64,000 nt of DNA from Phycisphaeraceae bacterium (lineage in GTDB: Bacteria; Planctomycetota; Phycisphaerae; Phycisphaerales; Phycisphaeraceae). Positions 1-40,605 of the stretch are shown here, piece after piece. Both the position numbers and the translations under genes were made by a program. Positions within the stretch are counted from its first letter, which is position 1. The number at the start of each line of letters is the position of its first letter. Below the pieces are notes generated by a model that saw nothing but the letters and a program-made list of their open reading frames with translations, was not told the origin of the DNA and made no database searches. The DNA is taken from positions 4,640,001 to 4,704,000 of the forward strand of contig OY771506.1 in the NCBI GenBank assembly GCA_963674705.1, written 5' to 3'.

Positions 1-672
1 GCCGATGATCCCGACGTTAGAAAAGCCGTGTGCATCGAGTTGAGCACGGGTCTGCTGGACCAGGTTGTTGTATTGGGTCGGCGAGATGTAGCCGTTCCAC
101 TCGCCGTTGGGTTCGTTCGCCATCTCGATGTAGGCCGGGTAGACATCATGATCCGCCAGGTAATCGATTTGTGCGGCGAGGAAGGTCGCGTAATCGTCGA
201 CCAAGTTATCGAGCATCTTGGTGTTCTGCGAGTTCAGGAAACTGTTGGCGATCTTGAATTCATTGAGGATGATGTCGATCCCGTTTGCCTGTGCGTGGAT
301 GTAACTGGATTTGATGGAAGGCAGGTGCCAGGGTTCGCTGCCGTTTGGGCCGTTGAAGTTGGCGGCGATGTAGTTGTACATCGAGGTGTAGTTGTCGCCG
401 GCTGCGACGTTGCTGTCCGTCGGGGGCTGTGTGCTGAAGTTAAACCAGTTGACGCCGGATTGCATCCGCGAGAAGTCCATCTCCAGGTCCGCCAGGACGG
501 ATTGGCCGATCGTGTTGCCCGACCAGACCTGTGCGCCGAAGCCCAGAACGGGCTGGGCGGTGTCGTTCACGTTGATGAGGTAATCAGCGGCCCGGACAGG
601 GATGGCGTCTGGCAGTACGTTCAATAGCAGAACCGCAACACCCGTAAACAAACGCATAAAGACACTTCTCAT
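1..672 (-). CDS. Secreted clan-A (GH30-like) glycoside hydrolase, 5' part; runs off the left edge
   Basis: Not in the ORF track; translated manually from ATG at 672: MRSVFMRLFTGVAVLLL...DTAQPVLGFGAQVWSG...YPAYIEMANEPNGEWN...NVGIIG. Has a signal peptide and NEP acid/base motif, and is clearly similar to 6458..7891. Confidence 0.85.
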   Translation of the reverse strand, partial: MRSVFMRLFTGVAVLLLNVLPDAIPVRAADYLINVNDTAQPVLGFGAQVWSGNTIGQSVLADLEMDFSRMQSGVNWFNFSTQPPTDSNVAAGDNYTSMYNYIAANFNGPNGSEPWHLPSIKSSYIHAQANGIDIILNEFKIANSFLNSQNTKMLDNLVDDYATFLAAQIDYLADHDVYPAYIEMANEPNGEWNGYISPTQYNNLVQQTRAQLDAHGFSNVGIIG

Positions 673-879: not shown

Positions 880-948
880 TTGGTAATATATGGAACCACA
901 TAGACACTATTTTTGGAAGTAAAACGGGCTCCCTCGTCCTAATATCAG
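880..948 (+). promoter_or_regulatory. Putative promoter P1 (TTGGTA-N19-CACTAT) with leader motifs shared with 4195..4263
   Basis: 885-919 matches 4200-4234 at 27/35 positions; CGGGCTCCC and TATCAG follow in both. Confidence 0.55.
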
Positions 949-1009
949 TTCACACATAACCCGCGCGTTGTGGGATTGATTGACCATATCTCGAAGGAGG
1001 AGGACGAAA

Positions 1010-1711
1010 ATGTATCGGCTAACTTTAGGCGTATGTGCGGTCGTGCTTTGCAGTGCAATGACGGATGCCGCATCGATGAAGTTCGATCTCGGCGATTCGA
1101 CAACCGCCAGCCCGGGCTACGTCAATGACATCGTTTACAACGGACAGGATGTTGCCAATGCGATTGATACGACCGGCGCGGCTACGGGCGTGAGTCTGAC
1201 CGTCACATCCGATACCGGCTGGAACTCTAACGGCCCCAACCGCAGCGGCCCGTTAACCCCAACGGCGCCTGCCAGCGATTACTTCGATGGCGAAACCACC
1301 CGAGACGCGATGTTCGGCCACACCGTTGAGTTCAACGGCCTGTCACCGCGCCCGCTGGTCGAGTACACCATTGCCGGCCTTGATCCTTCGTTGATCTATG
1401 ACTTCACGTTCTATGCCTCACGCGGCGCGGTCTCGGACAATCGTGAGGCGCAATATGACGTGGTCGGGCTGAATGCCGGTGTAGCGTACCTGGATGCAGG
1501 CAACAACGTCGGTAATGTCGCGCAGGTGTTGGGGATCGCCCCCACCGCCGCCGGCGAAATTGTCATGACCATTCAGCCGGGGCCCAACAACAATAACAGC
1601 AGCGGCTTCTACTACCTCGGTGGACTGGATATCAATCCGGTTCCCGAACCCGCAACGCTGTGCCTGATGGGCCTGGGTGGGGTGTTGATCGCCGTGCGCC
1701 GTGGTGCGTAA
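1010..1711 (+). CDS. PEP-CTERM sorting domain protein, unknown function
   Basis: GGAGGAGG RBS before ATG 1010; signal peptide; C-terminal VPEPATLCLMGLGGVLIAVRR. Confidence 0.9.
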   Translation: MYRLTLGVCAVVLCSAMTDAASMKFDLGDSTTASPGYVNDIVYNGQDVANAIDTTGAATGVSLTVTSDTGWNSNGPNRSGPLTPTAPASDYFDGETTRDAMFGHTVEFNGLSPRPLVEYTIAGLDPSLIYDFTFYASRGAVSDNREAQYDVVGLNAGVAYLDAGNNVGNVAQVLGIAPTAAGEIVMTIQPGPNNNNSSGFYYLGGLDINPVPEPATLCLMGLGGVLIAVRRGA

Positions 1712-1813
1712 GCAATTCACGGTTGCAGGACAACAGCAAAGCCGAACATGATTTTATGACACCTCACGTTGGGGGCGGCAACACGCCCCCAACGATTGAT
1801 ATCTCTGGAGATA

Positions 1814-2707
1814 ATGAACGTGTTAAAAATGTGCTTACACCGTAGCACCAAAGTAATACTGGCCGCCGCACTGCTGCTGTTTGTATCAGCCAGTCAAGCC
1901 GATGCGGTCAACATCCTCTTCTATGGAAACAGCTACACCAACGCATACACAAGCTATGCTCCGCGTTCCGTGCCTGACCTGGTACGTGAGATCGCAATAG
2001 CGGCGGGCCAATCAACACCGAACACCGTTAATGCCGCCGTCAATGGCGTAGACTTTGTGTATCACCTGGCGAACAATACCTCCGTCATCAGTTCAGCGTT
2101 AGCGCCGGGCGAACAGTGGGACTACGTGGTGTTGCAGAATTACTCCACCCGCCCCACCTATTCTCATCCCAATGGGAATATACCTCAGCATAGAGCAAAC
2201 TCCGTTGCTTTATATCAGCAAGTTGCCTCGCACAGCCCTGATGTCGTTCCCGTGATGTATGAAACATGGGCACGCGCGCTGGGCGACGGCAACCTGTCGT
2301 ACTTTGCCGGGGGCCAAACCCAGATGCAGCAGGAGCTGCGTGAGGGTTACAACCTGGCCGCTGCCGATATCGATGCGGTGGTGGGCACATCCATCGCTCA
2401 GGTCGCACCGGTCGGCGATGCGTGGGAGAACGCAGGCTACGTTGACCTTTACAACCCGGACCGGACGCATCCCAATCGACGCGGCCGAATGCTTACCGCA
2501 CTGGTCATCTATTCGACCATCTACGATGACGATACACATGACCTGCTGCTTAGCGGAGCATTGGATGCGACGTTGTCGAGCATGAGTCTGACGACTACGG
2601 ATGGTGAGTTCCTGACGTCGATCTCGGATGCGACGGCCATCCCTGAACCTGCTGTATTGCCCATGGTGGGTATGGCGTGCGCGTGGTTGGTTTGTCGGCG
2701 AACCTGA
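1814..2707 (+). CDS. SGNH-hydrolase-like (DUF4886-type) esterase with PEP-CTERM
   Basis: ILFYGNSYT block, WDYVVLQ, DRTHPN (DxxH); C-terminal IPEP-TM-RR; GGAG RBS before ATG 1814. Confidence 0.8.
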   Translation: MNVLKMCLHRSTKVILAAALLLFVSASQADAVNILFYGNSYTNAYTSYAPRSVPDLVREIAIAAGQSTPNTVNAAVNGVDFVYHLANNTSVISSALAPGEQWDYVVLQNYSTRPTYSHPNGNIPQHRANSVALYQQVASHSPDVVPVMYETWARALGDGNLSYFAGGQTQMQQELREGYNLAAADIDAVVGTSIAQVAPVGDAWENAGYVDLYNPDRTHPNRRGRMLTALVIYSTIYDDDTHDLLLSGALDATLSSMSLTTTDGEFLTSISDATAIPEPAVLPMVGMACAWLVCRRT

Positions 2708-2739
2708 CTTACGGTGCAGCGCAAGAATACCCAATCATT

Positions 2740-2774
2740 GGCGGGCCTGGTGTGCGGGCCCGTCTTTTTTATTT
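2740..2774 (+). terminator. Rho-independent terminator
   Basis: GGCGGGCCT/GGGCCCGTC stem followed by TTTTTTATTT, about 33 nt after the stop at 2707. Confidence 0.7.
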
Positions 2775-2848
2775 CAAGATCACTATCGCAATCTAAGAAG
2801 CGGCTGACCGCCTCATTTGAGCCCATTTGTCAGCATTCCCAACGCGAG

Positions 2849-2879
2849 TTGACATCAAAATGAACCATATGGGCATAAT
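2849..2879 (+). promoter_or_regulatory. Putative promoter P2 (TTGACA-N19-CATAAT)
   Basis: Near-consensus sigma70 hexamers; the spacer contains TGAACCA at the same offset as GGAACCA in P1. Confidence 0.55.
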
Positions 2880-2970
2880 ATTGGTATTTGATTCTGGTTT
2901 AAATACTCTACGATAGTGTTCGGTATCGCGTCACCGAAGCGCGATGTCCATACACTTGGAGGCCACTGCC

Positions 2971-3861
2971 ATGCCCCGACGGCATAGCGCATTTACGTTG
3001 ATCGAGTTGTTGGTGGTGATATCAATCATCGCGCTGCTGGTCGGGATCCTCTTACCGGCATTGAATGCCGCACGCAAAACCGCGCAGACCGCGGTCTGCC
3101 TGTCGAACCTTCGTCAGACAGGCATCGGTATCCATGGCTACGCAACTGATTATGAAAGCGCAACACCTCCGAGCATTGTGTGGGCCTTCACAACTAACGA
3201 TGGGCGGATGCTGGAGAATGCTGAATGGTCGCTGTTGATCATGTCCTATATCGCAAGTTCGGGGGACGGGACTTATGTCGGTGCGCCAAGCGGTGCCAAC
3301 CAGGCTGACACTTCGTATGCAACACTTGACACGTTCCGCTGCCCGTCTGCCGCGGTTTCGACCGGACGTATCCATTACAGCGGACACCCGCTGACGATGC
3401 CGCTTTATGTCACCAATTCCAGCCGATCACCCGCACCGTTTAAACTCGACCAGGTCCGCCGATCGAGCGATAACATGCTTATCGCCGATGCGAATCAGTT
3501 TGATACCAGAGCGACCGGTAGCGTCGCTTCTTATGAACTGGGGATTGTCTATGCTGCGCTGGACGACTTGGATGGGAAAACCGTCTGGCGGCCGGGGAGT
3601 ACGGTGACGCACTATTACGATTCCATAGAAACTGACAATGATGAGCCTATCGATCCCGGTGCGAATGCGAACGGGATCGGGCGCAACAAGAGCGGTGCGC
3701 TGGCGGGCAAGAAAGACCTGCGCTGGCGTCACGGTAGCGGGGGTAATGTCGAGGGTGGAGACAGCGGCAGTGTCAACGTGCTCTGGACGGATGGGCATTC
3801 CGACTCCAACCCGATGGGCAGCATCCACAAGGACCGCGTCCGACCCGACCCGATGAACTGA
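2971..3861 (+). CDS. Prepilin-type N-terminal cleavage/methylation protein (DUF1559-like, H-Xn-DG C-terminus)
   Basis: [38 protein letters not shown]...[16 protein letters not shown] before ATG 2971. Confidence 0.9.
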
Positions 3862-3966
3862 CAAGCCTATCGGGGCCATATCAAGATTGATAAGGCAACT
3901 GAGTGAACCAGCATACTATCCAATGATCGTTGATCATTTGTCGCTGCATAAATTAAAAACATATCA

Positions 3967-4144
3967 GCCACAGATGAACACGGATAAACACAGATAAAAA
4001 CCAATGAAATAGCTCGGATTCATCGGATGCATCGGATGGATGCAAGCCCCTTTCGAAATCTCTTAATCCGATATATCCGATGCATCCGAGCAAAACCCCT
4101 TTCTTATCTGTGTTAATCCGTGTTCATCCGTGTTCATCCGTGGC
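3967..4144. repeat. Nested inverted-repeat element built from 9-nt units (REP/MITE-like)
   Basis: Outer arms 3967-3997 GCCACAGATGAACACGGATAAACACAGATAA and 4104-4144 TTATCTGTGTTAATCCGTGTTCATCCGTGTTCATCCGTGGC; inner arms 4012-4037 and 4066-4091 complementary at 23/26 positions. Confidence 0.9.
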
Positions 4145-4194
4145 AAAATACTGTGCCCAAGCGGGCCATAGCCAATACACTTCGTACGCTCAGA

Positions 4195-4263
4195 CTGACA
4201 ATATAGTGCACTAATAAGACACTATATTTGGAAGACACGGCGGCGGGCTCCCACTACTATCAG
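4195..4263 (+). promoter_or_regulatory. Putative promoter P3 (CTGACA-N19-CACTAT) with palindrome TAGTGCACTA in the spacer
   Basis: Aligns with P1 and P2; perfect 10-bp palindrome at 4204-4213. Confidence 0.55.
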
Positions 4264-4314
4264 AATCAGTCGGGGAACGTAACTCCGATCGACACTTGGA
4301 GACAGGATAACGCC

Positions 4315-5187
4315 ATGCCAGAACGCAAAAGCGCTTTTACACTGATCGAGTTGCTGGTCGTGATTTCGATCATCGCTCTCCTCGTGGGCATCCTGCTGCC
4401 CGCACTGGGTGCAGCGCGACGGACGGCTCAGGGGATGGTGTGCCTGTCGAATCTCCGGCAGATCGGTGTGGGCATCTCGGGCTACGCTTCGGAAAACGAT
4501 AGCGCTACGCCGCCCAGCCAGACCGCCGGCTACGTTCCGCGCGGCGCTTCGCAACCGATCGAAAACCGCGAATGGACACTGCTCATTCAGTCTTACATGG
4601 TACAAGATAGTGATGGCACCTATTCCGGCGCACAAGCGACCGGCACCGGCGATGAAACCGTCGACAGCTTCCGCTGCCCGGCGTCACCGGTCGATTCCGG
4701 ACGCATGCATTACTCGGCCCATCCCTTGTCGATGCCTTTACTTTTCTATAGCGAGGCGCGCTCCCCATCAATCTTTAAACTCGATTATGCCAAGCGGCTG
4801 ACAAAGACCATGCTCGTCGCCGATGCAAATCAATGGATACCCGATGATGAAAGCAAGACCGAGTATGGCATCACCATGTCTGCATTGACCGACCTGGATG
4901 CGGGGGATGTCTACGACAGCAGCGGTTCGGATAATCATCACTACTACCGTGAAAGTGAAAGTGATAACAACGATCCCATCGAAGTGGGGTTGAACTCATC
5001 AGGCACCGGGCCTCGCAAGTTGCAGGCGATGAGCGGCCGGGCGGATATCCGCTACAGGCATTCGGGTGGCGAGAAGGATGGCAGCACCTCCGGCAGCGCC
5101 AACATCCTCTGGGCGGACGGCCATGCAGATTCCAACTCACTTGGCTCGCTGATCAAATCCGATGTGCGGACCGATCCAATGGACTGA
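4315..5187 (+). CDS. Prepilin-type N-terminal cleavage/methylation protein (DUF1559-like), tandem paralog of 2971..3861
   Basis: [27 protein letters not shown]...FRCPAS...RYRH...NILWADGH; colinear similarity with the upstream gene throughout. Confidence 0.9.
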
Positions 5188-5246
5188 TATCAAGAACGAT
5201 CAAAATAGAGACACCCCTAATCCTTCAGCATTCAAGAGTACGTCCC

Positions 5247-6392
5247 TTGTCAAGTAGTACACCCCCGCAATCCGAAAACACGACGACTGAAACCCGCACC
5301 CTCCGAACCGGCGCAGTTGTCACGCCGCAAACCCAACAGTGGCTCAAGCGGGCCAAGCCGGCGGGTACGGGCTTTCAACTCAAGCGTTTCCATGGCAATC
5401 CGATCCTGTCGCCTAATCCAGCGAATGCCTGGGAAGCCTTGGTTACCACCAATCCGGGTGCGTGGATCGATCCTGAGACGGGTGATGTCTGCATGCTCTA
5501 TCGGGCAGCGGGGCACGATCCGCAGCATCGTGTTGTGCTGGGGATGGCTCGTAGTAAGGACGGATATCACTTCGAGCGTTGCAGCGATCGGCCGGTGTTT
5601 GAACCCAGCGCAGATGGATTCGATGCCGGCTGCGTGGAGGACCCGCGTGTCATTCGTATCGCCGAGCATTACTACATCACATACGCCGCACGCCCGGTAG
5701 CGCCTGGGCAGTATTGGATCATGCCGGCATCCGAACGTCGGTGGCAGTCGGAAACGTTGCCCGCCGATGTGCCCTGGTGCATCCGCGAGAACCATACCGC
5801 AACCGGCCTGGCGATCACGCGCGACTTTAAAACCTTTATCCGTGCAGGCAGGCTGACAAGCGCATCGGTGGATGATCGTGATGTGATCCTCTTCCCCGAG
5901 AAGATCAACAGTAAGTATTACATGATGCACAGGCCCATGCAGTGGGCAGGTGACGGATACGGCACGGAGCATCCGACGATCTGGATTAGTTGTGGGAACG
6001 ATCTGTTAACCATGCGCGATCCTGAAATCCTGGTCAAAGCGAAGTACGACTGGGAAACCAAGATCGGGGGGAACACGCCGCCGATCCGTACGCCCGAGGG
6101 CTGGTTGACGCTGTATCACGCGGTCGGGCCGGATAAGCATTATCGCCTTGGAGCACTGCTGCTGGATCTGGATGATCCGACGGTGGTCCGTCACCGCACG
6201 CCACACTGGATTATGCAGCCGGAGCAGGATTACGAGACGCAGGGTTTCTACAACGGTTGTGTGTTCCCGTGCGGAAAGGTGATCCGCGACGGTAAACTGC
6301 TGGTGTACTACGGTGCGGGCGATGTGCATATCGGGCTGGCTACATGTGATATGGCTGCACTTCTGGACTACATGCGAAACTGCCCAGCCTGA
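5247..6392 (+). CDS. GH130 family beta-mannoside phosphorylase/glycosidase
   Basis: GNPILSP, TNPGA, LYRA, EDPRV, DVILFPEKIN, PPIRTPEGWL.LYH, YRLGALLLDLDDP; no signal peptide. TTG start is uncertain. Confidence 0.85.
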   Translation: MSSSTPPQSENTTTETRTLRTGAVVTPQTQQWLKRAKPAGTGFQLKRFHGNPILSPNPANAWEALVTTNPGAWIDPETGDVCMLYRAAGHDPQHRVVLGMARSKDGYHFERCSDRPVFEPSADGFDAGCVEDPRVIRIAEHYYITYAARPVAPGQYWIMPASERRWQSETLPADVPWCIRENHTATGLAITRDFKTFIRAGRLTSASVDDRDVILFPEKINSKYYMMHRPMQWAGDGYGTEHPTIWISCGNDLLTMRDPEILVKAKYDWETKIGGNTPPIRTPEGWLTLYHAVGPDKHYRLGALLLDLDDPTVVRHRTPHWIMQPEQDYETQGFYNGCVFPCGKVIRDGKLLVYYGAGDVHIGLATCDMAALLDYMRNCPA

Positions 6393-6457
6393 TGAACTTT
6401 CTACGCCGGACTCTACTTGGAATGAGTCGGGGTGATACCATATCCATGAGGTGATTC

Positions 6458-7891
6458 ATGATGGGATTATCCCGAGGCATGTCCTGGATGGTTGCGGTGC
6501 TGGTGCTGCTGGGCCTGGGGTGTCATGCGCTGTCTGAGCAATCCTCATCGGAACCGGTGACGATCAGGATTGATGTGAAAGATACTGCGCAAGAGGTGCG
6601 AGGATTTGGCGCTCATATCTGGGCGGGCGATCGGTATGTCGAGCCTGTGCTCAAGGAACTCAGCTTGCGTTATGTACGTATGACAGTCGGCCCGAACTGG
6701 TTTGATGTCGAGCAAGAGCCTCCGACGGATTCGACTCGGGACGAGATGGATCGGTTCCTCGCCGGGCACTTCGACGGGGATGGCGAACCACGTTTAAGGA
6801 ACGCCCAATTAGCATGGCAAATGACAGAGCGATTGGGGATTCAAGTCATCCTATTACAGTTTACCTCGCCCGAAAACTGGTTGAGCGATGACGGGCATCG
6901 GCAGTTGTTGCCCGAATATGTCGATGACTATGCACGGTACTGGGGCTCGTTTGTCGGGTTCTTAGTCGACCAAGGCATGAAGCCGGCCTATATAGAACTC
7001 GCGAATGAACCTGAGGGCGATTGGAACACACGGATATTGCCCGAGGACTACAATCGCCTGGTTATCCTGACACGCAAGGAACTTGATGATCGTGGTTATC
7101 ATGATATTGGCATCATCGGGCCCGGGCTGGCGTATCTCGATCACGACAATGGCTCCAGGCAGTGGATCGGCGCATTGAGCGACGAGGGCGTGCATTCACT
7201 AGCCGGCTGGTCAACGCATGTGTGGGACGATGTATTTAGTCCGGATACGTCCGTAGGATTTATCGATCAGCGTTGGCATGATTTTGATGCTGCCGTGCGT
7301 AAGAAAGATCCTGAACGGCAAAAGCCGATCATCATTACGGAGTATGCCACGTCAGCCACCACATTCAACGGCGTGTCATATGACCTTGTGAAGTCTCATG
7401 GCAACAACCGGGCGTCGGATTCTCCTGCCTATGCACAGCGCGTGTATGAACTGACACTCGTTCATATCAACAACGGGGCATCAGTCTTGATGTTCTGGGA
7501 GGCTGCGGACCAGCCATGGTCGCATGAAGCATGGGGGCTTGCGACAGGCACAAATAACAAACAGCGCCGGCCTGCTTTTTACGCCCTGTCAACGCTCATA
7601 CCTCTTATCCCGGAATCTGCTCGAGCTTTACGAAAAACATGGGATGATCCACATGTGAGTATCGCGGGATTGATTGACGAGCACAGTTTGGTATTGGCCT
7701 TTGCGAACGGCACTGATCAACCACAGCATCGAACCATCGAGCTTAACAATACCAGTGGGTTGAAGTTGAAGTCAGCAAGACGTTATCACGCGGACCGCGT
7801 GACGGATGTGCCATTGTCAACGCAAGGCAACACATTGCAGATAACTTTGCCGGCAGAAAGCACATTGACTTGTGAGTTTGTGATGGACTAG
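6458..7891 (+). CDS. Secreted clan-A (GH30-like) glycoside hydrolase
   Basis: Signal peptide; Q.VRGFGA, ANEPEG acid/base, IIITEY nucleophile, C-terminal beta-sandwich ending TLPAESTLT. Confidence 0.75.
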   Translation: MMGLSRGMSWMVAVLVLLGLGCHALSEQSSSEPVTIRIDVKDTAQEVRGFGAHIWAGDRYVEPVLKELSLRYVRMTVGPNWFDVEQEPPTDSTRDEMDRFLAGHFDGDGEPRLRNAQLAWQMTERLGIQVILLQFTSPENWLSDDGHRQLLPEYVDDYARYWGSFVGFLVDQGMKPAYIELANEPEGDWNTRILPEDYNRLVILTRKELDDRGYHDIGIIGPGLAYLDHDNGSRQWIGALSDEGVHSLAGWSTHVWDDVFSPDTSVGFIDQRWHDFDAAVRKKDPERQKPIIITEYATSATTFNGVSYDLVKSHGNNRASDSPAYAQRVYELTLVHINNGASVLMFWEAADQPWSHEAWGLATGTNNKQRRPAFYALSTLIPLIPESARALRKTWDDPHVSIAGLIDEHSLVLAFANGTDQPQHRTIELNNTSGLKLKSARRYHADRVTDVPLSTQGNTLQITLPAESTLTCEFVMD

Positions 7892-7961
7892 CCCTTCAGG
7901 TCAAGTGACTACGCCCATTGACTTCAGCAGTTGGTCAAGGGATTACGAGCCGGTTGTGCAA

Positions 7962-9011
7962 TTACTTTGACACTTCTTGCAGCCAACGAATCGCTGGCAT
8001 AGTGTCGTGCTGATGCCCCCCATCAAATACCGTCACACGCACCGGCCCGGCAACCTGACGAAACAGGATCGGGTACTTGCGGCTGTCTTCTTGTTGTGAC
8101 GGGTGGTACTTCAGTTCATCAGGCACGTGCCTATCAAGCAGGGAATTGATTGTTTGCTCAGAGATCACCATATCCGCGTAACCATTAGCCCGAGCGAGAG
8201 CGTTGAATGCCAGCAAAGACTGACTGACAGGCACGGAGCCTGTGTGTCCATCGTTGATGCCTGTATTGATATCGATCGGCAGGCCGGTTGCGTTTTGCAG
8301 GTGGAATAATGAAGAGCGGTGATGGTATTCGGCATCAACTTCCGCGGATGCACCGGGCGGGCCGCCGCAGACGTTTTCAAGATTGTGTGCATACTTTTGT
8401 GTGTTCTCTTTGCGCATGCACTGGGTGTGCCAGGCGGACAGGTCGGAGATCGGCACCCACGCGGAAACACCTGCCCAGGTCTGCGGCGAACGGCAGGCCA
8501 TGATCAACGCCATGTGCCCGCCGCCGGACGTGCCGACCAGATAGATGCGTTTATCATCGATCGATACTTGTTGCTTGGCGAATGCAACCGCATCTAAGAC
8601 ATCAGCCACAGCCAGGTCGGATGCGCAGGCCTGCGGCTGGACATTAGGTCCACGAAAATCCGGGTGGATAAACGCCCAGCCGCGTTGCTGCGCGACATGG
8701 AGGAAGTCGTCGCGCGGGGCCGATTGCTTGTAGTCACCGCTCCACGTATGCAGACAGACCAGTAGCGGTACCGCAACATCAGGATCGGATGGAACCCAGA
8801 ACATCGCATGCTGCGGGGAGCCATCCACTGAGCTGATGATTGTCACTTCGCGCAAAACTTTTGGTACATCACCTGATCTATGTGCTTCCGTATCAGATGC
8901 TTCGATCTGCCCCACCAAGACCCCGACAAATACAATATAGATCAACAGCACACACACAAAAACAAAGCTAAACACGGAATCGTGACGCATTTTAAATGGC
9001 AGCGGATCCAT
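7962..9011 (-). CDS. Exported alpha/beta hydrolase (S9-like esterase/peptidase)
   Basis: GTSGGG nucleophile elbow, HTWSGDY, DGGH; N-terminal hydrophobic segment. Confidence 0.8.
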   Translation of the reverse strand: MDPLPFKMRHDSVFSFVFVCVLLIYIVFVGVLVGQIEASDTEAHRSGDVPKVLREVTIISSVDGSPQHAMFWVPSDPDVAVPLLVCLHTWSGDYKQSAPRDDFLHVAQQRGWAFIHPDFRGPNVQPQACASDLAVADVLDAVAFAKQQVSIDDKRIYLVGTSGGGHMALIMACRSPQTWAGVSAWVPISDLSAWHTQCMRKENTQKYAHNLENVCGGPPGASAEVDAEYHHRSSLFHLQNATGLPIDINTGINDGHTGSVPVSQSLLAFNALARANGYADMVISEQTINSLLDRHVPDELKYHPSQQEDSRKYPILFRQVAGPVRVTVFDGGHQHDTMPAIRWLQEVSK

Positions 9012-9037
9012 GAGAACTTATGAGTGTTGCACTTAAC

Positions 9038-9889
9038 TTAATACGTGAATTTCACAAATCCGTTTTCTGCGGATATCTCCAGCGAAGGAAGCTGCTCCAT
9101 CAGGAACGCACCACTGAGGTCCGGATACACGCCTTCGTAACTATCGAGATAGGATTTGACCAGTTCGGGTCCGGTGGCGATCCATTCAGCGTGACCATCC
9201 AGGAAGCCTCTGTTGATGCCATCTTCACCGTGGTTGGTCTTGGTGCCGGGCCAGTTATTTTTATTACCCGCTCCCGTGGCATCCAATCCATCCATTGCAA
9301 CGCTTACGCGATCGGGATGGGCACTGTTACGGATCGATTTGCGTACACCATCCTTGCCCGTGGCGATGACTTTTTTTGCGCCTTGTTTATAACCATTAAC
9401 ATCGCCCGGCACCTTCGTGCCATCGGGATAGATAGCTCCACCGCCAAAGAATGCCCACAATTCGTAGCTGTGGCCGCCTGTCTCATCGGTTGCGTCCTTC
9501 GCATTATCCTGCAGGTCCGCGATATATTCGACGAAGCCACCCTGCGCCGGGATATACGCTCGTTCCTTGGTCGGGCTGACGACGTTTTGTGTGCTTGGGC
9601 AAACCGCCACTTCCAAGCTGTTGATGTAATCCGGGATGACAAGATTCAAGTCATCATCACTGGCACCGATAGACGGGATGAAAGCGCCTTCTCCATCCCC
9701 TTCGTTATCGACGGCCCGTGCGAATAATCCGGTATTGAGCTGCCGAACATTGCTAAGGCATTTTGACTTCTGGGCTGTTCTGCGTGCGGCACCCAGGGCA
9801 GGCAGCAAAATACCCACCAGCAGCGCGATAATCGAGATCACGACGAGTAATTCGATGAGTGTGAATGCAGCGTATCTTTTCGTGGGCAT
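9038..9889 (-). CDS. Prepilin-type N-terminal cleavage/methylation protein (DUF1559-like)
   Basis: [47 protein letters not shown]. Confidence 0.9.
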
Positions 9890-9968
9890 GATGCTTCTCC
9901 AAGCAGACAGATAGTTCGACTTGCTCCAGCTCATTGAGCTGTTCATGTGGCGGCCAAGTGCTCGCCTT

Positions 9969-10002
9969 TAAACCGGCTGTACGCTGTCAGGCGTACGGCC
10001 GG
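9969..10002 (-). terminator. Intergenic hairpin, possibly a weak terminator or RNA processing site
   Basis: 12-bp stem (9973-9984 with 9991-10002, one mismatch), 6-nt loop, followed by TTT on the minus strand. Confidence 0.45.
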
Positions 10003-10097
10003 GTGGGAAGGTTAAAAGTGTTACGAGATTCATTCATGTCTTATCAGAAGCCTGGCCGTTACCTCAGGCAGTGATAGACCTGTTTACCTTTTCCATA

Positions 10098-11114
10098 TCA
10101 GGCCATGCGACGACGAAGCAGCGCCACGGCGCCGGTCGTCAACAGAGCCAGACTTGCCGGTTCGGGGATGGAAGGTGCACCACCGGCGGTGGGCGGCGTA
10201 CCGTTGTTCCATGTGTTCAGGACGATATCCAAGTCATCGAGGCCGACGAAGCCGTCGTTATTGATGTCGCCGGAGAGGTCGACCAGCGAGGCGGACTCAG
10301 CAACCCAGATGGCGTCGAGTTCGGCTTCGGTCAGCTGATGGTCATAGATACGCAGCGTGTCGATTGCACCATGCCAGAAGTCCTGGATGACGCCGCGGTT
10401 GTCACGGGCGCCCAGCGCCATGTTGTATTGCCATGCGGCCTGCGGGTCGGTGCTATCCAATTGTTGCCAGTCGGCACCGTACGACGCCGCGACATCACCG
10501 TCCATGTAGACGAACGAATTATTCGGCGCCATCCAACCCACGCCGTCGACATCAACATCCCAGGACCAGGCGATCAGGTGCCAGGCATTGTTGACCATGT
10601 TGATGCCTAAGCCGTCTGTTTCCTTGATATGCCAGAAGTCGCCGCCTTCGGAGCGGGGATAGATATCCAGCGAGCCGTTGATGTTGCCAGCGGTAAAGTT
10701 TGTGGTCGAGCCATCGTTTTGTGTACCCATGAGGTACTGCGTGCCTGCGTAATCGGTCCGTACCCATGCGACGATGGTGCCGGCGACAACACCCTTATTC
10801 GAAGCGTAGAACGGCCGACCGGTCAGGCCCATGTCGATCCAGTCATCGACACCGTCAAGCAGCAGAGCGCCACCGGCCGATTGGTCATAACCCGTGGTGT
10901 AGGTGGCGGTACCAGCGGTTGAACCGTTATACGAAGTACCTTCCATGTACACACCATCCGGTGTGGGGTTGCCCAGCAGATCGACGAATCCTGATGAATC
11001 GTTGAGGTTGCCATCGAAGTTGTACTGGGCGACAAGCGCGCCGGACGCCATCGAGACGGAAAAACCGAGCGTTGCAAGCGTGGCACAAGAAGCGAGTAAA
11101 CGAGTGCGAAGCAT
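10098..11114 (-). CDS. LamG/ConA-like jelly-roll protein with one dockerin-like repeat and PEP-CTERM
   Basis: LVAQYNFDGNLNDSSG, ALLLDGVDDWI, WHLIAW, GAIDTLRIYD; GDINNDGFVGLDDLDIVL; IPEP-TM-RRR; GGAGG RBS. Confidence 0.85.
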   Translation of the reverse strand: MLRTRLLASCATLATLGFSVSMASGALVAQYNFDGNLNDSSGFVDLLGNPTPDGVYMEGTSYNGSTAGTATYTTGYDQSAGGALLLDGVDDWIDMGLTGRPFYASNKGVVAGTIVAWVRTDYAGTQYLMGTQNDGSTTNFTAGNINGSLDIYPRSEGGDFWHIKETDGLGINMVNNAWHLIAWSWDVDVDGVGWMAPNNSFVYMDGDVAASYGADWQQLDSTDPQAAWQYNMALGARDNRGVIQDFWHGAIDTLRIYDHQLTEAELDAIWVAESASLVDLSGDINNDGFVGLDDLDIVLNTWNNGTPPTAGGAPSIPEPASLALLTTGAVALLRRRMA

Positions 11115-11239
11115 GATTTCAATCCTCCAATTAGAAAGTGATTTGCGATGCATGAAGTTTGAGAAACTAGAAAACATTTGGCAGCAACATAAATGTGTGG
11201 TCCACCATCACCCTCGCGGTGAACACTTTGTCCTCCTAT

Positions 11240-12289
11240 TTAATCGATACGTTGGCCATTAGGTAATATCCGAAGTGGATGCTCACGGGGTACGCCCGTC
11301 GTCTGGTTGATTTCCAGGAACGCTGAAATGGATTTGTGCATCGTGCCTTTTTCGAGTCCGGCGATGCGTCGGCATAGCCAACGGGCTGCCTCCTCGCCTA
11401 GTTCTTCCGCGCTCTGGCAGACCGCCGTCATTCGCGGATAAATGAACTTGCGGCTGGACGCGTCATCGAATCCGATCAGGGAAAGATCGTCCGGCACCTT
11501 CAATCCGATTTCCGCTGCGCGGCACATCGCACCGATCGATGTAGCCGGATCGGTCAGATATACCGCGGTGGGAGACTCGGGCAGGCTCATGAGCTGGTTG
11601 ATGGCGTTCATGCCGCCGCTGAGATTGGGGACGATGTGGATCACCAGGGCCGGATCGACTTCGATGCCGTTTTTTTGTAACGAACGCTCGTAACCCATCT
11701 GGCGGTCAAGGTGGTCGTTGTCACCCCGGCGGTCAATCACCAGCGCGATACGACGATGCCCCAGATAGATCAGGTGGTCGATCGCCCGCTCGGATTCGGG
11801 CCCGGAATCACAGCAAAGGTAATTGACCTGTTCGGACTCAAACCGCTCCGCCACAACCAAGGAGGGGAAACCCTCTTTGGCGATGGCCTCACACACCTGG
11901 CGGGATTTGGTACCCGCGCGAAGAATAACACCCTGAAAACCGTGTCTCTGGAAAAACTGGGTGTAGCTTTCGCCTTCCAGCATCTGCTGCTGAAGTGAGA
12001 CCAGCGAGGGATGGAACTTGCTGTCATGCAGCCCGAGTTGGATGCCATGCAGTAGATACTGATCGTAATCACACAACTGAGACGACTCATCCACGTGAAC
12101 CAGGCCGATACTTCCCGCCATCGGTATATTTTGTTGAGTTTTCCGTGTGTTGCCATATCCGGCGATATTCGCGGCCTTCATCACCAGTTCCCTGGTTTTC
12201 GGGCTGACATCCGGATGGCTGTTCAATGCGCGAGATGCTGTCGTCACTGAGACGCCCGCGGTTTTAGCTATTTCTCGAACTGATGCCAT
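11240..12289 (-). CDS. LacI family transcriptional regulator
   Basis: SVREIAKTAGVSVTTASRALN helix-turn-helix; GHRRIA, VPDDLSLIGFDD. Confidence 0.95.
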   Translation of the reverse strand: MASVREIAKTAGVSVTTASRALNSHPDVSPKTRELVMKAANIAGYGNTRKTQQNIPMAGSIGLVHVDESSQLCDYDQYLLHGIQLGLHDSKFHPSLVSLQQQMLEGESYTQFFQRHGFQGVILRAGTKSRQVCEAIAKEGFPSLVVAERFESEQVNYLCCDSGPESERAIDHLIYLGHRRIALVIDRRGDNDHLDRQMGYERSLQKNGIEVDPALVIHIVPNLSGGMNAINQLMSLPESPTAVYLTDPATSIGAMCRAAEIGLKVPDDLSLIGFDDASSRKFIYPRMTAVCQSAEELGEEAARWLCRRIAGLEKGTMHKSISAFLEINQTTGVPREHPLRILPNGQRID

Positions 12290-12304
12290 AGTGAACTCCC
12301 GGTT

Positions 12305-12626
12305 TTGTACCGGTTTAATACCGGTAATGAATGTACCCGTCGTCTAGTAAAATGTCAACACAAAAATGACTCCCAATGCCCGGTCACATCGGATACCAGG
12401 CCACCCAAAGTGAACTTAAATCCTTTTGGTGGCGATAATAACGCCATAAATACATCATCCTGCCAAACAGCGGAAATTTGCTCTAAACGCCCCATATTAC
12501 GGCCGGCCCCAGCTTAAACCCCACAAAATGACATGCGTACCGAATTATTACCGGTAACATTTCCAACCAATGTTCATTTGTGTATCATCATCCTCATCCC
12601 GGTCTAAGAGTTGAAAAACCGGTTTC
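12305..12626. promoter_or_regulatory. Four ACCGGT-centred palindromes, candidate LacI operators
   Basis: GTACCGGTTT 12307-12316, TACCGGTA 12319-12326, TTACCGGTAA 12548-12557, AAACCGGTTT 12616-12625, all in the divergent intergenic region. Confidence 0.6.
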
Positions 12627-12730
12627 GGGCTTCTTTCCGCCCATCGCAGGTTGACATAGATGCAAACGTACCGATCCAACACGTCAGTAACACACAAGCT
12701 TTAATCAAATAGAAACTAGTGGAGCAGGTC

Positions 12731-14059
12731 ATGAAACTCTCTGTCTTACTCACGTACACGATCCTGTTTGGCAGCCTTCTGGCCCAGATATGTGTACATG
12801 CAGCCACGGAACCCACGAACTCGGTGTCCTCACCAAGTCAGGTGGAAGTTCGCAAGACCACCAGTCAAGAGGATGGAAGTGTCAGCTACGAGTTATATGT
12901 AAACGGCGAGCCTTACTACATCAAAGGGGTGGGCGCCAAGTACAAACTGGAAGAGGTCGCCGAGGCCGGCGCCAACTCGATCCGCACGTGGGACGCCAAG
13001 GACATCGGGCCGCTGCTTGATCGGGCGCACGAACTGGGTATCACCGTCATCGTCGGATTCTGGTTGCCTCACCCCGGTGACGGCGGGTTCAGCTACGACG
13101 ATCAGGAAGCGCTTGACAAGGAAACCGAAGAGAACCTGGCGTTTGTCAAACAATACAAGGACCACCCCGCCGTGTTGATGTGGGCGCTGGGCAACGAGAT
13201 GGAAGGTAACGGCGGCAAGGACATCAACGTCTTCAAATACATCAACGAGCTTTCCAAAAAGGTCAAGGAACTCGACCCCAACCACCCCACCATGACCGTC
13301 ACCGCGGGTATCAGCATGTACCGCGTGATCAACCTTATGAAGTATTGTCCGGACGTCGATGTGTACGGACCGAACGTCTACGGTGAAGACCTGCGTTCCG
13401 CGATCGAGAAGCTTCGGACCTACGGCATGACCAAGCCGTTCATCATTCCCGAGTTCGGCCCGCCGGGGCAGTGGGAAAACAAGACGCCGTGGGGTGCGCC
13501 GATCGAGATGAACAGCACCGAAAAGGCGCGCTGCTACATCCGGCACTACTTCGATCCGATCCAGGCGGAGAAGGGCTGGTGCATTGGTTCATACGCGTTC
13601 TACTGGCGTTACGACCCGGAAGAGCGTCAGTGGCCTAGCTGGTATTCCATGGTCGATCCGCACGGCCAGCGTTACGGCGGCGCGGACGCCATGACGTATG
13701 CGTGGACGGGCAAGTGGCCGGACAACCATGCGCCGGAAATTGTGATGCTGCGATCGAAGGCCGACCAACAGATCGTCGCGCCGGGTGAGAAGTTCGATGT
13801 CAAACTGGTGGTCAGCGATCCGGATAACGATCCGATCGAGATCAAATGGATTCTGGGATTGGATCATGAAATCAGCGGTATGCGTTCTCACTTGGATGAG
13901 AAAATCCCAGAATCCGAATTCATTGCGGAAGGCTCTGGCAAACAGATCGTTGTGCGCGCCCCTGAAAAGGAAGGCCCCTACCGGTTGAATGTTTTTGTGT
14001 ATGACGATCACAACCGGGCCGCCAGGGCGAGCATGCCGTTTTACGTTCATGGCGAATGA
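12731..14059 (+). CDS. Secreted clan-A TIM-barrel glycoside hydrolase (GH2-like; possibly GH157/GH158 beta-glucanase)
   Basis: NGEPYYIKG, GANSIRTW, HPAVLMWALGNE, PEFGPPG; C-terminal Ig-like domain; GGAG RBS. Confidence 0.8.
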   Translation: MKLSVLLTYTILFGSLLAQICVHAATEPTNSVSSPSQVEVRKTTSQEDGSVSYELYVNGEPYYIKGVGAKYKLEEVAEAGANSIRTWDAKDIGPLLDRAHELGITVIVGFWLPHPGDGGFSYDDQEALDKETEENLAFVKQYKDHPAVLMWALGNEMEGNGGKDINVFKYINELSKKVKELDPNHPTMTVTAGISMYRVINLMKYCPDVDVYGPNVYGEDLRSAIEKLRTYGMTKPFIIPEFGPPGQWENKTPWGAPIEMNSTEKARCYIRHYFDPIQAEKGWCIGSYAFYWRYDPEERQWPSWYSMVDPHGQRYGGADAMTYAWTGKWPDNHAPEIVMLRSKADQQIVAPGEKFDVKLVVSDPDNDPIEIKWILGLDHEISGMRSHLDEKIPESEFIAEGSGKQIVVRAPEKEGPYRLNVFVYDDHNRAARASMPFYVHGE

Positions 14060-14147
14060 TACGCTAAAAGCGGTTGAAGCTAACTATGTGTTCGGCCGTG
14101 AAAGCGAGATCTGTCGCGTTGCGTATCTACTATCACATTACTCGTGA

Positions 14148-17100
14148 TTGTTTGTTATGAACCGTACGATCAAGACATTTCGGAGTCCGATCGGCTGGCT
14201 GGTGCTTGTCATCACAGGCTTCGGCTTGGTTGTGTGGCTGATGGGATGGATAAGTCGGCCCGAGCTACATGAAAGCCAAATCCAATACACTCAACAAGAA
14301 ATCGATGAGGCGGCCGAAGCACGGGATGTGACGTTTGATCCGGACCCAGCGAAGTTGCCTGTGCTTCATCGGGACATTGTTGTTACACCCAAGGGCGAGT
14401 CACCGATCCTGCGTGCGATGGTGGAAGCCGGCGAGTTACCACCTCTGGAAGAGCGGCTGCCCGATGAGCCGGTCGTATTGGATTGTGTCGACGGCATCGG
14501 GCAGTACGGTGGAACGTGGCTGCGGCTTGCGACCGCGATGAGCGATCTTGATGTGATCACCTATCGTCTGAGCGGCGCTTTTCTAGTGCGATGGTCATCT
14601 CTGGGTTATCCCATCATGCCCCACCTTGCCAAAAGCATTATCCCTAACGAGGATAAAACCGAATGGGTGGTCACGCTCCGCAAAGGTCTGCGCTGGTCAG
14701 ATGGAGAACCGTTCACCGCGGACGACATCATGTACTGGTGGGAAGAAGAAGCGAAAAATGCATTCGTAAGCAGCCAGCCACCGCAGTGGATGCGTCAGGG
14801 CGACAAGAGCGGGCGGGTCGAGAAGATCGATACGTATCGTTTGCGGTTTGTTTTTCCTGAGCCGAACGGCATCTTTCTGGAAAGCCTTACGCAAGCATGG
14901 CGGGGGCCGACCGAGACTCCGAGGCATTATCTGGCTAAATATCATCCCGACCCGACAGTTGGCGACCAGGCATTTATCGATCAGCAGGTGCAAGCCTACG
15001 GCCTTCCCAGTGCCAGGGCGTTGTACTTTTTTATGAAAGACTATCGTAACCCGGAACACCCGAGACTCTGGCCATGGATTTATCGTAAATACCGTGCGAA
15101 TCCGCCGCAGGTGTTTGTAAGGAATCCGTATTACTACGTGGTCGATGTCGAGGGAAACCAACTACCTTATATCGATCGGCTTCAGTTTGATGTGATGGAT
15201 GAAAAGCTGCTGGGCATCCGTGCGGCGGGGGGCGGCGTGTCGATGCAGACGCGCCATATCAAGTATCGTGATTACACCGAATACATGAGCCGACGTGAAA
15301 CCAGTGGCACGCGGATACTACATTGGTACCCGGCGACACGCTCTGACTTTGTGATTCATCCGAATCATACGCGTTATGTTGATCCGAATGACCCCGCTAC
15401 GGGCTGGAAGGCAAAGCTTCTTGCGGATGTGCGTTTCCGCAGGGCGCTATCGCTGGCGATCGACCGTAAAGCCATCATCAAAGCGGAATACAATAACATC
15501 GTTCAGCCGACACAGGTTGCGCCGGGGCCGCAATCCCCCTTCCACTACGAACCGCTGTCCAAAGCGTATACCGAGTTTGATCCGGATCGTGCGAATGCTT
15601 TACTGGATGAGCTTGGGCTTACGGAGCGAGATGCGGAAGGTTATCGCACATTCCCCGACGGATCGCGTATGGTGTTTTACTTCGATTTTTCGCCTTACAC
15701 AGGCGAGGGGCCGTTGCAGTTCATCGTGTCCGACTGGGGCGATGTCGGCATCCGGCTGATACCGAGAGCGCTAAGCCGAAGGCTATTCTATACACGCAAG
15801 GATGCGGCCAACTTCGACTTCAATGTCTGGTCCAGCGAAAGCGATTACATGCCATTGCTTTCGCCGCGTTATTTTGTGGCAGTCAATACGGAGTGTTTCT
15901 ATGCGGTGAACTGGGGCCGATGGTTCAGCCTCGGTGGGTACTACGGCGACGAGGCGGCGAACATCCGCGGCGCATCCCAACCGCCACCGGGCCATCCGAT
16001 GAATCAGGCCTATGCAGCGTTCGAGTCATCGATACGCCAACCCACCATCGAGTTGCAGAAAAAGCACTTCAACGAGGCGATGGAGATCGCAGCACAGCAA
16101 CTCTGGGCGATCGGCCTGGCAGACGCTCCGCCGCAGATCGTCGTCACAGACAATCATATGCACAACATCCCGGATATAGCGCTATTCGGCGTTATCTTCG
16201 CGACACCCGCCAACGCAGGTATCGAAACCTATTACTTTGATAACGCGGAATCCACCCAGGCTGTTACGCAAGAGGTCAGGGATTCGCTGCTACACCCGCA
16301 GTTACGGCCGCATGCAGACATTACCCCGCAAGTAGACGCTCCTGACACAGGCTATCCATGGCTAAGACTGCTGATTCGTGTCACGATCACGGCAACCATC
16401 TTGCTGGTCATCTTGCTTGTCGCGCTGCGCCATCCATACATCGGCAAGCGCTTGTTGATCATGGTCCCGACGCTATTCGTGATATCGATTGCGGTGTTTA
16501 CGATTATCCAGTTGCCTGAGGGTGACTACCTGACGATGCGGCTGATCCAGTTACAGGAGTCGGGCGACAGCCAGGCGGAAAAAGAAATCGAAGACCTGCG
16601 TACACTGTTCCATTTTGATGAACCAAACTGGAAAAAGTACATGCGGTGGATGGGAATCACGTGGTTCTACACGCTCGAGCCTTCGGATATGGGTTTGCTG
16701 CAAGGCGACATGGGCAGGTCCATGGAGACAACGGAGCGCGTGAACACGCTTGTCGGCGACAGGATACTGCTGACCTTCCTGATCTCACTGGGTACGATCC
16801 TGATGACGTGGCTGATTGCGATACCGATCGGGATCTATTCCGCGGTCAGGCAGTATTCATATTCAGATTACGCGTTGACGCTGATCGGCTTTGTGGGGAT
16901 GAGTGTGCCGGGATTCCTGCTTGCGCTTGTGTTGATGGCCAAGGCGGATGTGTCGGGCCTGTTCTCACCGGAATACGCGGTGCAACCGCAATGGTCTTTA
17001 GGCAAGTGCATAGATCTATTGGGGCATATCTGGATCCCGATTGTTGTGCTGGGCGTGGGTGGGACGACGGGCATGATCCGCATCATGCGGGCGAATCTGT

Positions 17101-33105: not shown

Positions 33106-33131
33106 GATTGTGCGACTCCTTAATATCTGAA

Positions 33132-34502: not shown

Positions 34503-34504
34503 GG

Positions 34505-40603: not shown

Positions 40604-40605
40604 TC

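Follow-up and report, generated by a model that had tools for sequence, protein, structure and literature searches.

DUF1559-type pilins mark the sugar-use loci of a Phycisphaeraceae genome and may serve as nutrient-specific capture subunits

A stretch of 64,000 nucleotides from a Phycisphaeraceae bacterium (contig OY771506.1, positions 4,640,001 to 4,704,000; hereafter, the window) carries genes for pilin-like proteins of the DUF1559 type next to genes for proteins with a PEP-CTERM sorting signal and for carbohydrate-active enzymes (CAZymes). Using a combination of neighbourhood statistics, profile searches, structure models and genome comparisons, we found that the pilin gene, and not the PEP-CTERM gene, marks the sugar-use loci of this genome. 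We propose, giving the proposal an even chance of being correct, that these pilins are nutrient-specific capture subunits, which would feed a pilus-driven import in place of a TonB receptor.

Passages of the published work describe DUF1559 as a putative solute-binding, stress-responsive family specific to the Planctomycetes-Verrucomicrobia-Chlamydiae (PVC) bacteria, with no demonstrated function (PMC2754498, PMC4807772); in R. baltica, the genes are responsive to stress by salt, cold and heat (PMC2754498). Among the papers covered (subscription papers lay outside this coverage), none was found that links DUF1559 pilins to sugar or B12 loci. The supplements of PMC11685898 and PMC13526803 hold no DUF1559, prepilin or pilin term, and the accessible passages of PMC11685898, PMC11361711 and 10.64898/2026.09.21.753266 do not mention these pilins.

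Pilin genes mark sugar-use loci

The genome (G000; one 5.54-Mb contig, 96.6% complete) was annotated with a custom gene caller, which returned 4301 genes (83% coding) and missed some genes and starts. It holds 92 open reading frames with a prepilin motif, including 70 DUF1559-type ones spread over 60 loci, as well as approximately 385 PEP-CTERM genes (a few low-scoring ones are probably false) and three exosortases. A same-strand PEP-CTERM gene adjoins the pilin at 39 of the 60 loci (global null 6.6, regional null 8.2; 42% at PEP-only anchors), and a LacI-type gene lies at most four genes away at 26 of the 60 (global null 4.2, regional null 9.0; 8% at PEP-only anchors), being upstream of the pilin at 20 loci and downstream at five. 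Seen from the regulators, a pilin stands at most four genes from 26 of the 44 LacI-type genes, for a background of 10%. Both the LacI and the PEP-CTERM adjacency exceeded the regional null in all 1000 shuffles. The layout PEP-CTERM, prepilin, hydrolase, which an earlier note on this DNA had described from two loci, is therefore real and above chance.

The neighbours were then classified by a Pfam scan of the genes, other than pilin and PEP genes, that encode 150 aa or more and stand no more than three genes away (proteins clipped at 850 aa). The pilin set comprised 201 genes from the 60 loci (36 pre-labelled, 165 scanned), and the controls 127 genes from 26 of 40 drawn random anchors and 138 genes from 34 of 40 drawn PEP-only anchors, the selection having preceded annotation. 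Glycoside hydrolase (GH) or polysaccharide lyase (PL) genes accounted for 27/201 near pilins, as compared with 2/127 near random anchors (p 9e-5) and 3/138 near PEP-only anchors (p 1.7e-4), a count that omits one GH-GT2 fusion and includes one split GH31 twice. Counted by locus, from hand tallies, GH/PL genes occur at 22/60 pilin loci, 2/26 random anchors and 2/34 PEP-only anchors (28/60 pilin loci when BNR and sulfatase genes are added); LacI-type genes at 24/60, 0/26 and 1/34, respectively; and any sign of sugar use at 39/60, 2/26 and 5/34. A GH31 gene split in two pieces was seen beside one pilin locus (L044:6526-7727, minus strand).

As for the PEP-CTERM genes, 233 of the 385 have no pilin within six genes, and those away from pilins are mostly found among housekeeping genes. 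Because GH/PL genes, LacI-type genes and sugar signs are enriched at pilin loci but not at PEP-only anchors, the pilin, not PEP-CTERM, marks sugar-use loci, and we regard this linkage of pilins with sugar loci as solid and very nearly certain. The enrichment near CAZymes and LacI-type regulators, which the earlier note had suggested testing for both kinds of genes, thus holds for the pilins (above random and PEP-only anchors, and for LacI and PEP above the regional null) but not for PEP-CTERM alone.

TonB receptors and pilus machinery of the genome

No match to SusD (PF07980, PF14322) was found in the 96.6% complete genome, nor any adjacent pair of susC-like and susD-like genes. The one TonB receptor of the whole genome is TOL_0244-like, scores 42.6 bits against the SusC model (cut-off 368) and sits in a signalling operon, a YfiR-like and a sensor gene coming after it. 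The absence of a TonB receptor from the 64 kb, which had been taken as telling, is true but expected by chance, since the whole genome holds one receptor; it is the genome-wide lack that is informative.

The pilus and secretion genes comprise two A24 peptidases, PilB, PilT, PilC, five secretin-like genes and several clusters resembling type II secretion systems (T2SS). A PilB-PilT-PilB-PilC locus (L114 and L032, G000 4.332-4.359 Mb) encodes large minor pilins (one of 1222 aa) and is followed by two tRNA genes, then by four tandem DUF1559 pilins. The single Amuc_1101-like PilM, encoded outside the window, scores 232 bits on NF045709 (cut-off 650), and its two downstream genes have no family. 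This single-copy group of a long Amuc_1101-type PilM and two genes without family (L026:8307-14344) is kept in 29 of 31 relatives, and we consider it a candidate core of a machine resembling MUL2, the pilus of Akkermansiaceae discussed below. A pilin beside the Amuc_1101-like PilM was rejected as a conserved pairing, as it occurs in 3/29 genomes only.

Sequence, fold and evolution of the pilins

All 70 pilins have Gly (34) or Ala (36) at position −1 together with Phe1/Glu5, the pattern on which the set was chosen; the three pilins of the window have Ala. Against PF07596 (gathering cut-off 23.3 bits), pilins 1 and 2 of the window score 25.2 and 24.8, and pilin 3 is unlisted at E<=1e-3; against TIGR04294 (H-X9-DG-CTERM; cut-off 19 bits), pilins 1 and 2 score 11.9 and 13.1, and pilin 3 gives no match. 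The pilins carry the TIGR04294-like His and Asp-Gly residues, at longer spacing. The first 27 residues are identical in 51/70 pilins and are encoded by 51 distinct DNA sequences, whose third codon positions are close to saturated (0.47 vs 0.44). On account of these differing DNA sequences, the N-terminal identity reads as purifying selection for one assembly interface; gene conversion was rejected as its origin on the same grounds. The heads share about 33% at best, and have in common two cysteines, one Tyr and a C-terminal His/Asp-Gly motif; Trp and Tyr are over-represented in them, at 2.5 and 5.6% of residues as against 1.6 and 2.9% proteome-wide.

The pilin model (pLDDT 71) consists of a helix of about 50 residues (19-69, pLDDT >90), a small C-terminal sheet and large low-confidence inserts. 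In the VIA fold comparison, pilins or pseudopilins fill the top 16 of 43 rows, the best being PilA4 (Z 5.2, root-mean-square deviation (rmsd) 3.7, 122 residues aligned over 16-300), and Neisseria ComP is among the matches (Z 4.6, rmsd 4.7, 103 aligned). These Z values are modest, the alignment to type IV pilins runs end to end, and the sequence matches (PDB profiles) agree; Foldseek on the same model returned no match at E<=1e-3. By their class III signal and, as modelled, a long alpha-1 helix lying on a C-terminal beta-sheet, the proteins belong to the type IV pilins.

A quick tree groups eight pilins without sugar neighbours in one branch (SH-aLRT 95), which includes the four-gene array located 5.6 kb after the PilB-PilT-PilB-PilC locus; the members of this branch may be general subunits. 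Between this genome and a close relative (G005), the heads are a median of 91% identical, vs 93-94% for their neighbours (Wilcoxon p 0.03; best 30 of 79 matches plus four loci), and at several loci the adjacent PEP protein stays 90-95% identical while the head changes. At 16 chosen loci, which include the most divergent ones, the head omega is about 0.10 with a doubled synonymous distance (0.44 vs 0.22). Positive selection on the heads was not seen at these loci; the low omega combined with the doubled synonymous distance suggests that heads are swapped as alleles.

Pilins in cobalamin, zinc and glycerophosphodiester loci

The one cobalamin riboswitch detected in the genome directly precedes a PEP-CTERM gene, a DUF4465-PEP-CTERM gene and a pilin gene (L018:3623-14063, G000 1.885-1.895 Mb), and the same region continues with a PEP-CTERM gene, a short pilin and ZnuA/C/B-like genes. 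Passages of PMC13398666 report that DUF4465 proteins bind B12 and adjoin btuB in Bacteroides, and passages of PMC10957091 that a PEP-CTERM zinc scavenger is known. In the B12-riboswitch loci, the pilin stands by a BtuJ-like PEP-CTERM protein, in the position usually taken by BtuB. In a 301-genome sample of the phylum, 6/7 DUF4465 loci (5/6 outside this genome) have a DUF1559-type pilin within 1.5 kb, and the riboswitch occurs at 5/7 of them; in one (L247), a second riboswitch heads the pilin itself. A PEP-pilin pair also heads glycerophosphodiester genes. A match resembling a thiamine pyrophosphate (TPP) riboswitch, under cut-off, has no pilin nearby. Since pilins stand in B12, zinc and glycerophosphodiester loci, their association is not confined to glycans. 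The earlier note had proposed a replacement of SusC/SusD in glycan loci; it agrees with the lack of SusD and SusC-like receptor in the genome but is too narrow as regards the nutrients.

Pilin loci in other genomes

Pilin matches occur in 31/31 related genomes (8-89 each), in 16 of which no TonB receptor was found, the others having 1-5. In two other genera of the family, a pilin lies at most 5 kb from 14/19 and 20/26 LacI-type genes, for 5.6 and 4.4 in the regional null, respectively. The metagenome set, drawn from other bacteria, comprised the 37 loci of 6 kb or more out of 79 returned, with PEP-CTERM at three, LacI at two, sulfatase at eight and GFO at nine of them; 12 of the 22 Pfam-scanned loci, for which there was no control set, have a GH, beta-helix, CE15 or sulfatase gene. 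A metagenome scan with the pilin head alone gave no match. The PEP-CTERM and LacI links are strongest in the Phycisphaeraceae family, since they are rare at the pilin loci of other bacteria.

PEP-CTERM partner proteins

The view of the earlier note that the PEP-CTERM proteins are binding modules is supported for those next to pilins, 15/74 of which carry GH, carbohydrate-binding module (CBM) or lectin domains, vs 1/34 elsewhere (Fisher p 0.019; proteins clipped at 700 aa beside pilins and at 500 aa elsewhere). The domains often fit the locus (X25 with GH13, a mannanase binding domain with GH5, LamG with BNR/Nan genes), and surface-tagged GH10, GH13, GH99 and GHL10 enzymes adjoin pilins. Within the window, PF07589 is above cut-off on PEP-CTERM protein 1 (PEP1) and scores 20.0 vs 20.7 on PEP-CTERM protein 3 (PEP3); the motif of PEP-CTERM protein 2 (PEP2) was read directly. 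A complex prediction for the pilin 3 head with the LamG domain of PEP3 scored 0.00, which is evidence neither for nor against.

Organization of the two pilin loci of the window

The genes that the earlier note had named in both loci stand where it placed them. Locus 1, on the left, comprises the following features.

1..657 (−): 5′ portion of a PEP-CTERM-anchored clan-A glycoside hydrolase (~560 aa), which continues beyond the window edge and is divergent from the PEP-pilin unit
1010..1711 (+): PEP-CTERM protein 1, a small secreted beta-rich domain of a family without name (PF07589; start and ribosome site)
1769..2707 (+): PEP-CTERM protein 2, DUF4886 (SGNH-like; PF16227, E 2.7e-6), with a PEP tail directly visible in the sequence
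2740..2764 (+): terminator-like hairpin with a T run between PEP2 and pilin 1 (consensus match only; near-identical in a relative)
2944..3861 (+): DUF1559-type pilin 1 (likely start 2971; PF07963, PF07596 and TIGR02532 above cut-off; modelled as a type IV pilin fold)
4228..5187 (+): DUF1559-type pilin 2, tandem paralog of pilin 1 (PF07963, PF07596; TIGR02532 above cut-off)
5247..6392 (+): GH130 mannoside phosphorylase/hydrolase (PF04041, E 2.6e-48), its subfamily not fixed
6458..7891 (+): secreted clan-A glycoside hydrolase, family not assigned (no Pfam/NCBIfam family match)

PEP1 falls in unnamed clusters in the Atlas (0.96), where a galactose-binding-like domain (0.86) is a lead only, and its single-sequence fold model (pLDDT 41) was not usable; PEP2 is likely an esterase, as predicted from its domain. 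The heads of pilins 1 and 2 are 48% identical. The closest solved relatives of the GH130 enzyme are beta-1,2-mannoside phosphorylases (E ~1e-43). The hydrolase at 6458-7891 had been called GH30-like, which is not established: its sole GH30 match is one xylanase, at a weak E of 0.055, and its Atlas neighbours are of the GH5/GH39 type (0.95-0.96). The hydrolase at 1..657 is 36% identical to it and has the NEP motif. Nor does locus 1 end at 1010-7891, as had been thought; it extends to the left of the window with this PEP-CTERM-anchored clan-A paralog, an XylR-type regulator and a sugar ABC importer, thereby uniting regulator, CAZymes (GH130 and clan-A) and transporter.

Module 2, a LacI, pilin 3 and GH158 module, comprises a minus-strand and a plus-strand arm.

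7962..9011 (−): secreted alpha/beta-hydrolase esterase, terminal gene of the minus-strand arm (Peptidase_S9, BD-FAE; polyhydroxybutyrate (PHB)-depolymerase-like under cut-off)
9038..9946 (−): DUF1559-type pilin 3 (likely start 9889; PF07963; no PF07596 at E<=1e-3)
10098..11177 (−): PEP-CTERM protein 3, with a LamG/concanavalin-A-like domain and a short dockerin-like repeat (likely start 11114; PF13385, E 3.4e-6; alignment with 8 relatives)
11240..12289 (−): LacI-family repressor, heading the lacI-PEP3-pilin3-esterase arm (PF00356, PF13377)
12307..12327: operator-like site, lying immediately downstream of the promoter-like element of the minus strand (12358-12330); kept in G005 and G008
12537..12557: second operator-like site, directly next to the promoter-like element of the plus strand (12560-12588) ahead of GH158; conserved in three genomes
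12719..14059 (+): GH158, predicted endo-beta-1,3-glucanase (PDB 9oro GH158, E 1e-74; 6pal, E 1e-46)
14148..17444 (+): ABC importer, a family-5 solute-binding protein fused to a permease (PF00496 and PF00528)
17402..18580 (+): second ABC permease, right boundary of the movable 10.6-kb module (PF00528, PF12911)

LacI, GH158, esterase and ABC importer are thus co-located. The gene after pilin 3 encodes an alpha/beta esterase and not a glycosidase, so that the hydrolases named earlier stand in part (GH130 and the clan-A enzymes), and the divergent clan-A hydrolase is now identified as GH158. Residues 56-443 of the latter align with 9oro and retain the clan-A Asn-Glu motif. From the activity of the GH158 family, which we take to be that of an endo-beta-1,3-glucanase, the likely substrate of module 2 is predicted to be laminarin or a beta-1,3-glucan oligomer.

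The operator-like pattern occurs only twice in the 5.5 Mb genome, once before each arm of module 2, and beside promoter-like elements of both; from this we infer that a single LacI repressor would jointly control pilin, lectin, esterase, GH158 and importer. Over 600-14200, promoter and terminator matches are no more numerous than in shuffles. The gap between PEP3 and pilin 3 (9889-10098, minus strand) contains an operator half-site and a possible hairpin, both conserved across three genomes. A dockerin-like repeat ahead of the PEP-CTERM tail of PEP3 (10108-10277) recurs in dozens of genes of a relative and in LamG paralogs. The 27 N-terminal residues of pilin 3 are those of 50 other paralogs, and its orthologs were found in G005 and G008.

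The block 7993-18580 (10.6 kb) matches one stretch of the close relative G005 with 86% identity. That relative retains locus 1 at 89-99% identity without module 2 beside it and has module 2 intact 135 kb away; loss of module 2 was therefore rejected in favour of its translocation. In G008, module 2 lies in a third genomic context. Since both units are intact yet 135 kb apart in the close relative, locus 1 and module 2, which had been described as two adjacent loci, are separate units and neighbours by accident. In G008 (L206:10042-12247), the PEP3 and lacI orthologs are broken frames, which may reflect assembly error or decay, and an extra LacI gene stands between pilin and esterase.

Other genes of the window

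The window had been regarded as mostly carbohydrate genes; these are interspersed with efflux, sulfate-ABC and sigma-54 genes, a resistance-nodulation-division (RND) efflux triad, a sigma-54 activator and a sulfate ABC importer interrupting them at 29992-41520. The stretch 22615-29995 (plus strand) holds three long Gly/Asn/Thr-rich secreted genes (600, 529 and 1269 aa) without family match, of which one is PEP-CTERM-tailed and one has a PATR repeat, the first two overlapping slightly. A sugar locus without pilin occupies 49884-57895. Its minus strand encodes a GH42-like multidomain protein of 1473 aa, an ABC sugar importer and a SASA esterase; its plus strand encodes three secreted proteins without family. 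At the right edge of the window (63000-64000, minus strand, continuing to G000:C1:4704298-4708272), a fourth pilin just outside it is directly followed by a second GH158-like gene, which is 32% identical to that at 12719-14059 and lies between two XylR-type regulators, near a PilT-like ATPase.

Proposed function and alternatives

We propose that the LacI repressor would release both arms of module 2 when the sugar, likely a beta-1,3-glucan oligomer, appears. The pilin would be cleaved after Gly/Ala and would join a common filament through its invariant helix, probably as one of the minor subunits. At the surface, PEP-CTERM lectins and hydrolases sorted by exosortase would bind and nick the polymer, in the manner of BtuG/J or of SusD/E/F/G, which act in surface glycan binding and cleavage. 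The pilin head would then bind the glycan, or the loaded PEP-CTERM partner, and retraction through the secretin would deliver it to the periplasm, where GHs and the ABC or sodium-solute symporter (SSF) transporter of the locus would complete uptake.

Several observations weigh against this proposal. At the locus level, 20/60 pilin loci have no sign of sugar use, sulfatase, solute-binding protein and GFO genes near pilins are no more frequent than in the regional null, and the GH/PL excess was measured against random and PEP-only anchors only. In locus 1, the terminator-like hairpin (2740..2764) stands between PEP2 and pilin 1. Concerning the machine, the genome has at least eight PilB/GspE-type ATPases, which single out none. 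As for the heads, the structure prediction suggested by the earlier note yielded the type IV pilin fold and no lectin, CBM or SusD chain among the listed Foldseek, VIA and PDB profile matches, much of the head being low-confidence loop. The nearest-neighbour head shares the substrate label in 9/30 loci (null 3.6, p 0.024), the labels having been assigned after some top pairs were seen; by its head, pilin 3 most resembles the pilin of a glycerophosphodiester locus, and it is unrelated to the fourth pilin, that of the other GH158 locus. Among the G000-G005 orthologs, 9/31 heads are less than 80% identical and their neighbours mostly more than 85%, unlike a constrained binding protein; for pilin 3, the head is 67% identical vs 95% for the ABC binding protein. 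Regarding B12, the best 30 riboswitches of 151 phylum genomes lead a TonB receptor in 11 cases, a BtuF-type protein in three and a pilin in two, and 2/5 tested genomes with pilin-B12 loci also carry TonB receptors.

The results on linkage and co-regulation fit equally well with pilins that are substrate-induced adhesins, the oligosaccharides released by PEP-CTERM hydrolases entering by ordinary porins without pilus-driven import. This explanation, unlikely but one that we take seriously, agrees with the surface-tagged enzymes beside pilins, with the rapid allele swapping of heads, which is typical of exposed adhesins, and with the interpretation of MUL2 as an attachment pilus (PMC13174399). 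It leaves unexplained why a pilin stands under a B12 riboswitch by a BtuJ-like protein, or before ZnuABC, where there is nothing to adhere to, and B12 exceeds the size limit of porins according to passages of PMC5394234. The pilins could also be pseudopilin-like cargo adaptors, the heads of which would bind PEP-CTERM proteins or enzymes of their own locus for type II/IV export, display or retrieval. The adjacency of PEP-CTERM and pilin genes at 39/60 loci, a pilin and its upstream PEP gene that remain paired in five genomes at one locus, the several T2SS-like clusters and the lack of a lectin fold match for the head are all in line with adaptors; we nevertheless judge them rather improbable, as most PEP-CTERM genes (233/385) are far from any pilin, only 3/37 pilin loci of other bacteria have a PEP-CTERM gene, and the heads change next to PEP proteins that do not.

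Abundant accessory genes for pilins, PEP-CTERM proteins and CAZymes might, lastly, simply gather in variable regions, the pilins serving general surface variation. Pilin, PEP-CTERM and LacI genes do peak in the same 250-kb bins, a third of the loci have no sugar genes, and passages of PMC2754498 report the stress response of R. baltica DUF1559 genes. Such a by-product appears very improbable to us, because LacI and PEP adjacency beat the regional null in every shuffle and did so again in two other genera, LacI lies preferentially upstream (20/60 vs 5/60), module 2 has retained its gene order and operator-like sites despite having moved, and the heads are under purifying selection (omega ~0.1).

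Should the pilins be capture subunits, one might go further and propose that PVC bacteria replaced their repertoire of TonB transporters with an interchangeable pilin library, i.e., one retractile type IV machine with per-nutrient heads and PEP-CTERM binders for glycans, B12, and perhaps zinc and phosphodiesters. This generalization is tentative and, in our view, somewhat doubtful. If true, active import across the outer membrane would have a third general route, and the planctomycete 'fishing rods' would be matched to their genes. Periplasmic polysaccharide uptake by planctomycetes with few or no TonB transporters is presented as an open question in passages of PMC5394234 and PMC12078418, and DUF1559 is among the largest PVC-specific families without assigned function. 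The linkage gives each pilin a predicted ligand, such as B12 for the pilin under the riboswitch and beta-1,3-glucan for pilin 3. Were the pilins no more than adhesins, they would still be a usable marker for polysaccharide utilization loci (PULs) where SusC/SusD-based tools fail.

Comparison with known systems

The layout is Sus-like but is not a SusC/SusD system; we regard it as a putative variant of pilus-assisted capture. Like the SusC/SusD PULs of Bacteroidota, the loci combine a regulator, surface binders, hydrolases and an inner-membrane transporter per substrate; unlike them, they have no SusD or SusC-like receptor, PEP-CTERM tails replace lipoprotein anchors and a pilin fills a recurring slot. 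The BtuB-BtuG/J loci of Bacteroidota are alike in having DUF4465 under a B12 riboswitch (passages of PMC13398666).

In planctomycetes, dextran is bound by pili-like fibres and then found in the periplasm (passages of PMC5394234), and the idea of 'fishing rod' pili is already published (passages of PMC5394234 and PMC12078418). The process described (Boedeker 2017), polysaccharide capture and periplasmic entry, is the one that our genes would serve; the accessible passages of this work, which concerns Planctopirus and Gemmata rather than the present lineage, name no pilin gene and propose no substrate-specific set (PMC5394234, PMC12078418). In Akkermansiaceae, glycans are acquired with the help of a type IV-like pilus locus (PMC13174399; also passages of 10.64898/2025.12.30.696933 and PMC4960237). 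This MUL2 is alike as a PVC pilus tied to glycan acquisition, and the Amuc_1101-like PilM is present here and in 29/31 relatives. It differs in being one conserved locus with an archaeal-type pilin, as opposed to about 70 type IVa-like pilins across substrate loci here; a pilin beside that PilM is seen in 3/29 genomes only, and no search was made for MUL2A.

Within the DUF1559/SBP_bac_10 (PF07596) and TIGR04294 families of PVC bacteria, our pilins are typical in their prepilin N-terminus, high copy number and C-terminal His...Asp-Gly, and differ in that pilin 3 has no PF07596 match and pilins 1 and 2 are below the TIGR04294 cut-off. In Neisseria, ComP is a receptor minor pilin in DNA uptake, and the Sulfolobus bindosome uses ABC-type sugar-binding domains. 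In both cases, as we propose here, a protein with a pilin signal lends a shared filament its ligand specificity; ComP and the bindosome use one or a few subunits, whereas the present genome has a large library of heads encoded in catabolic loci.

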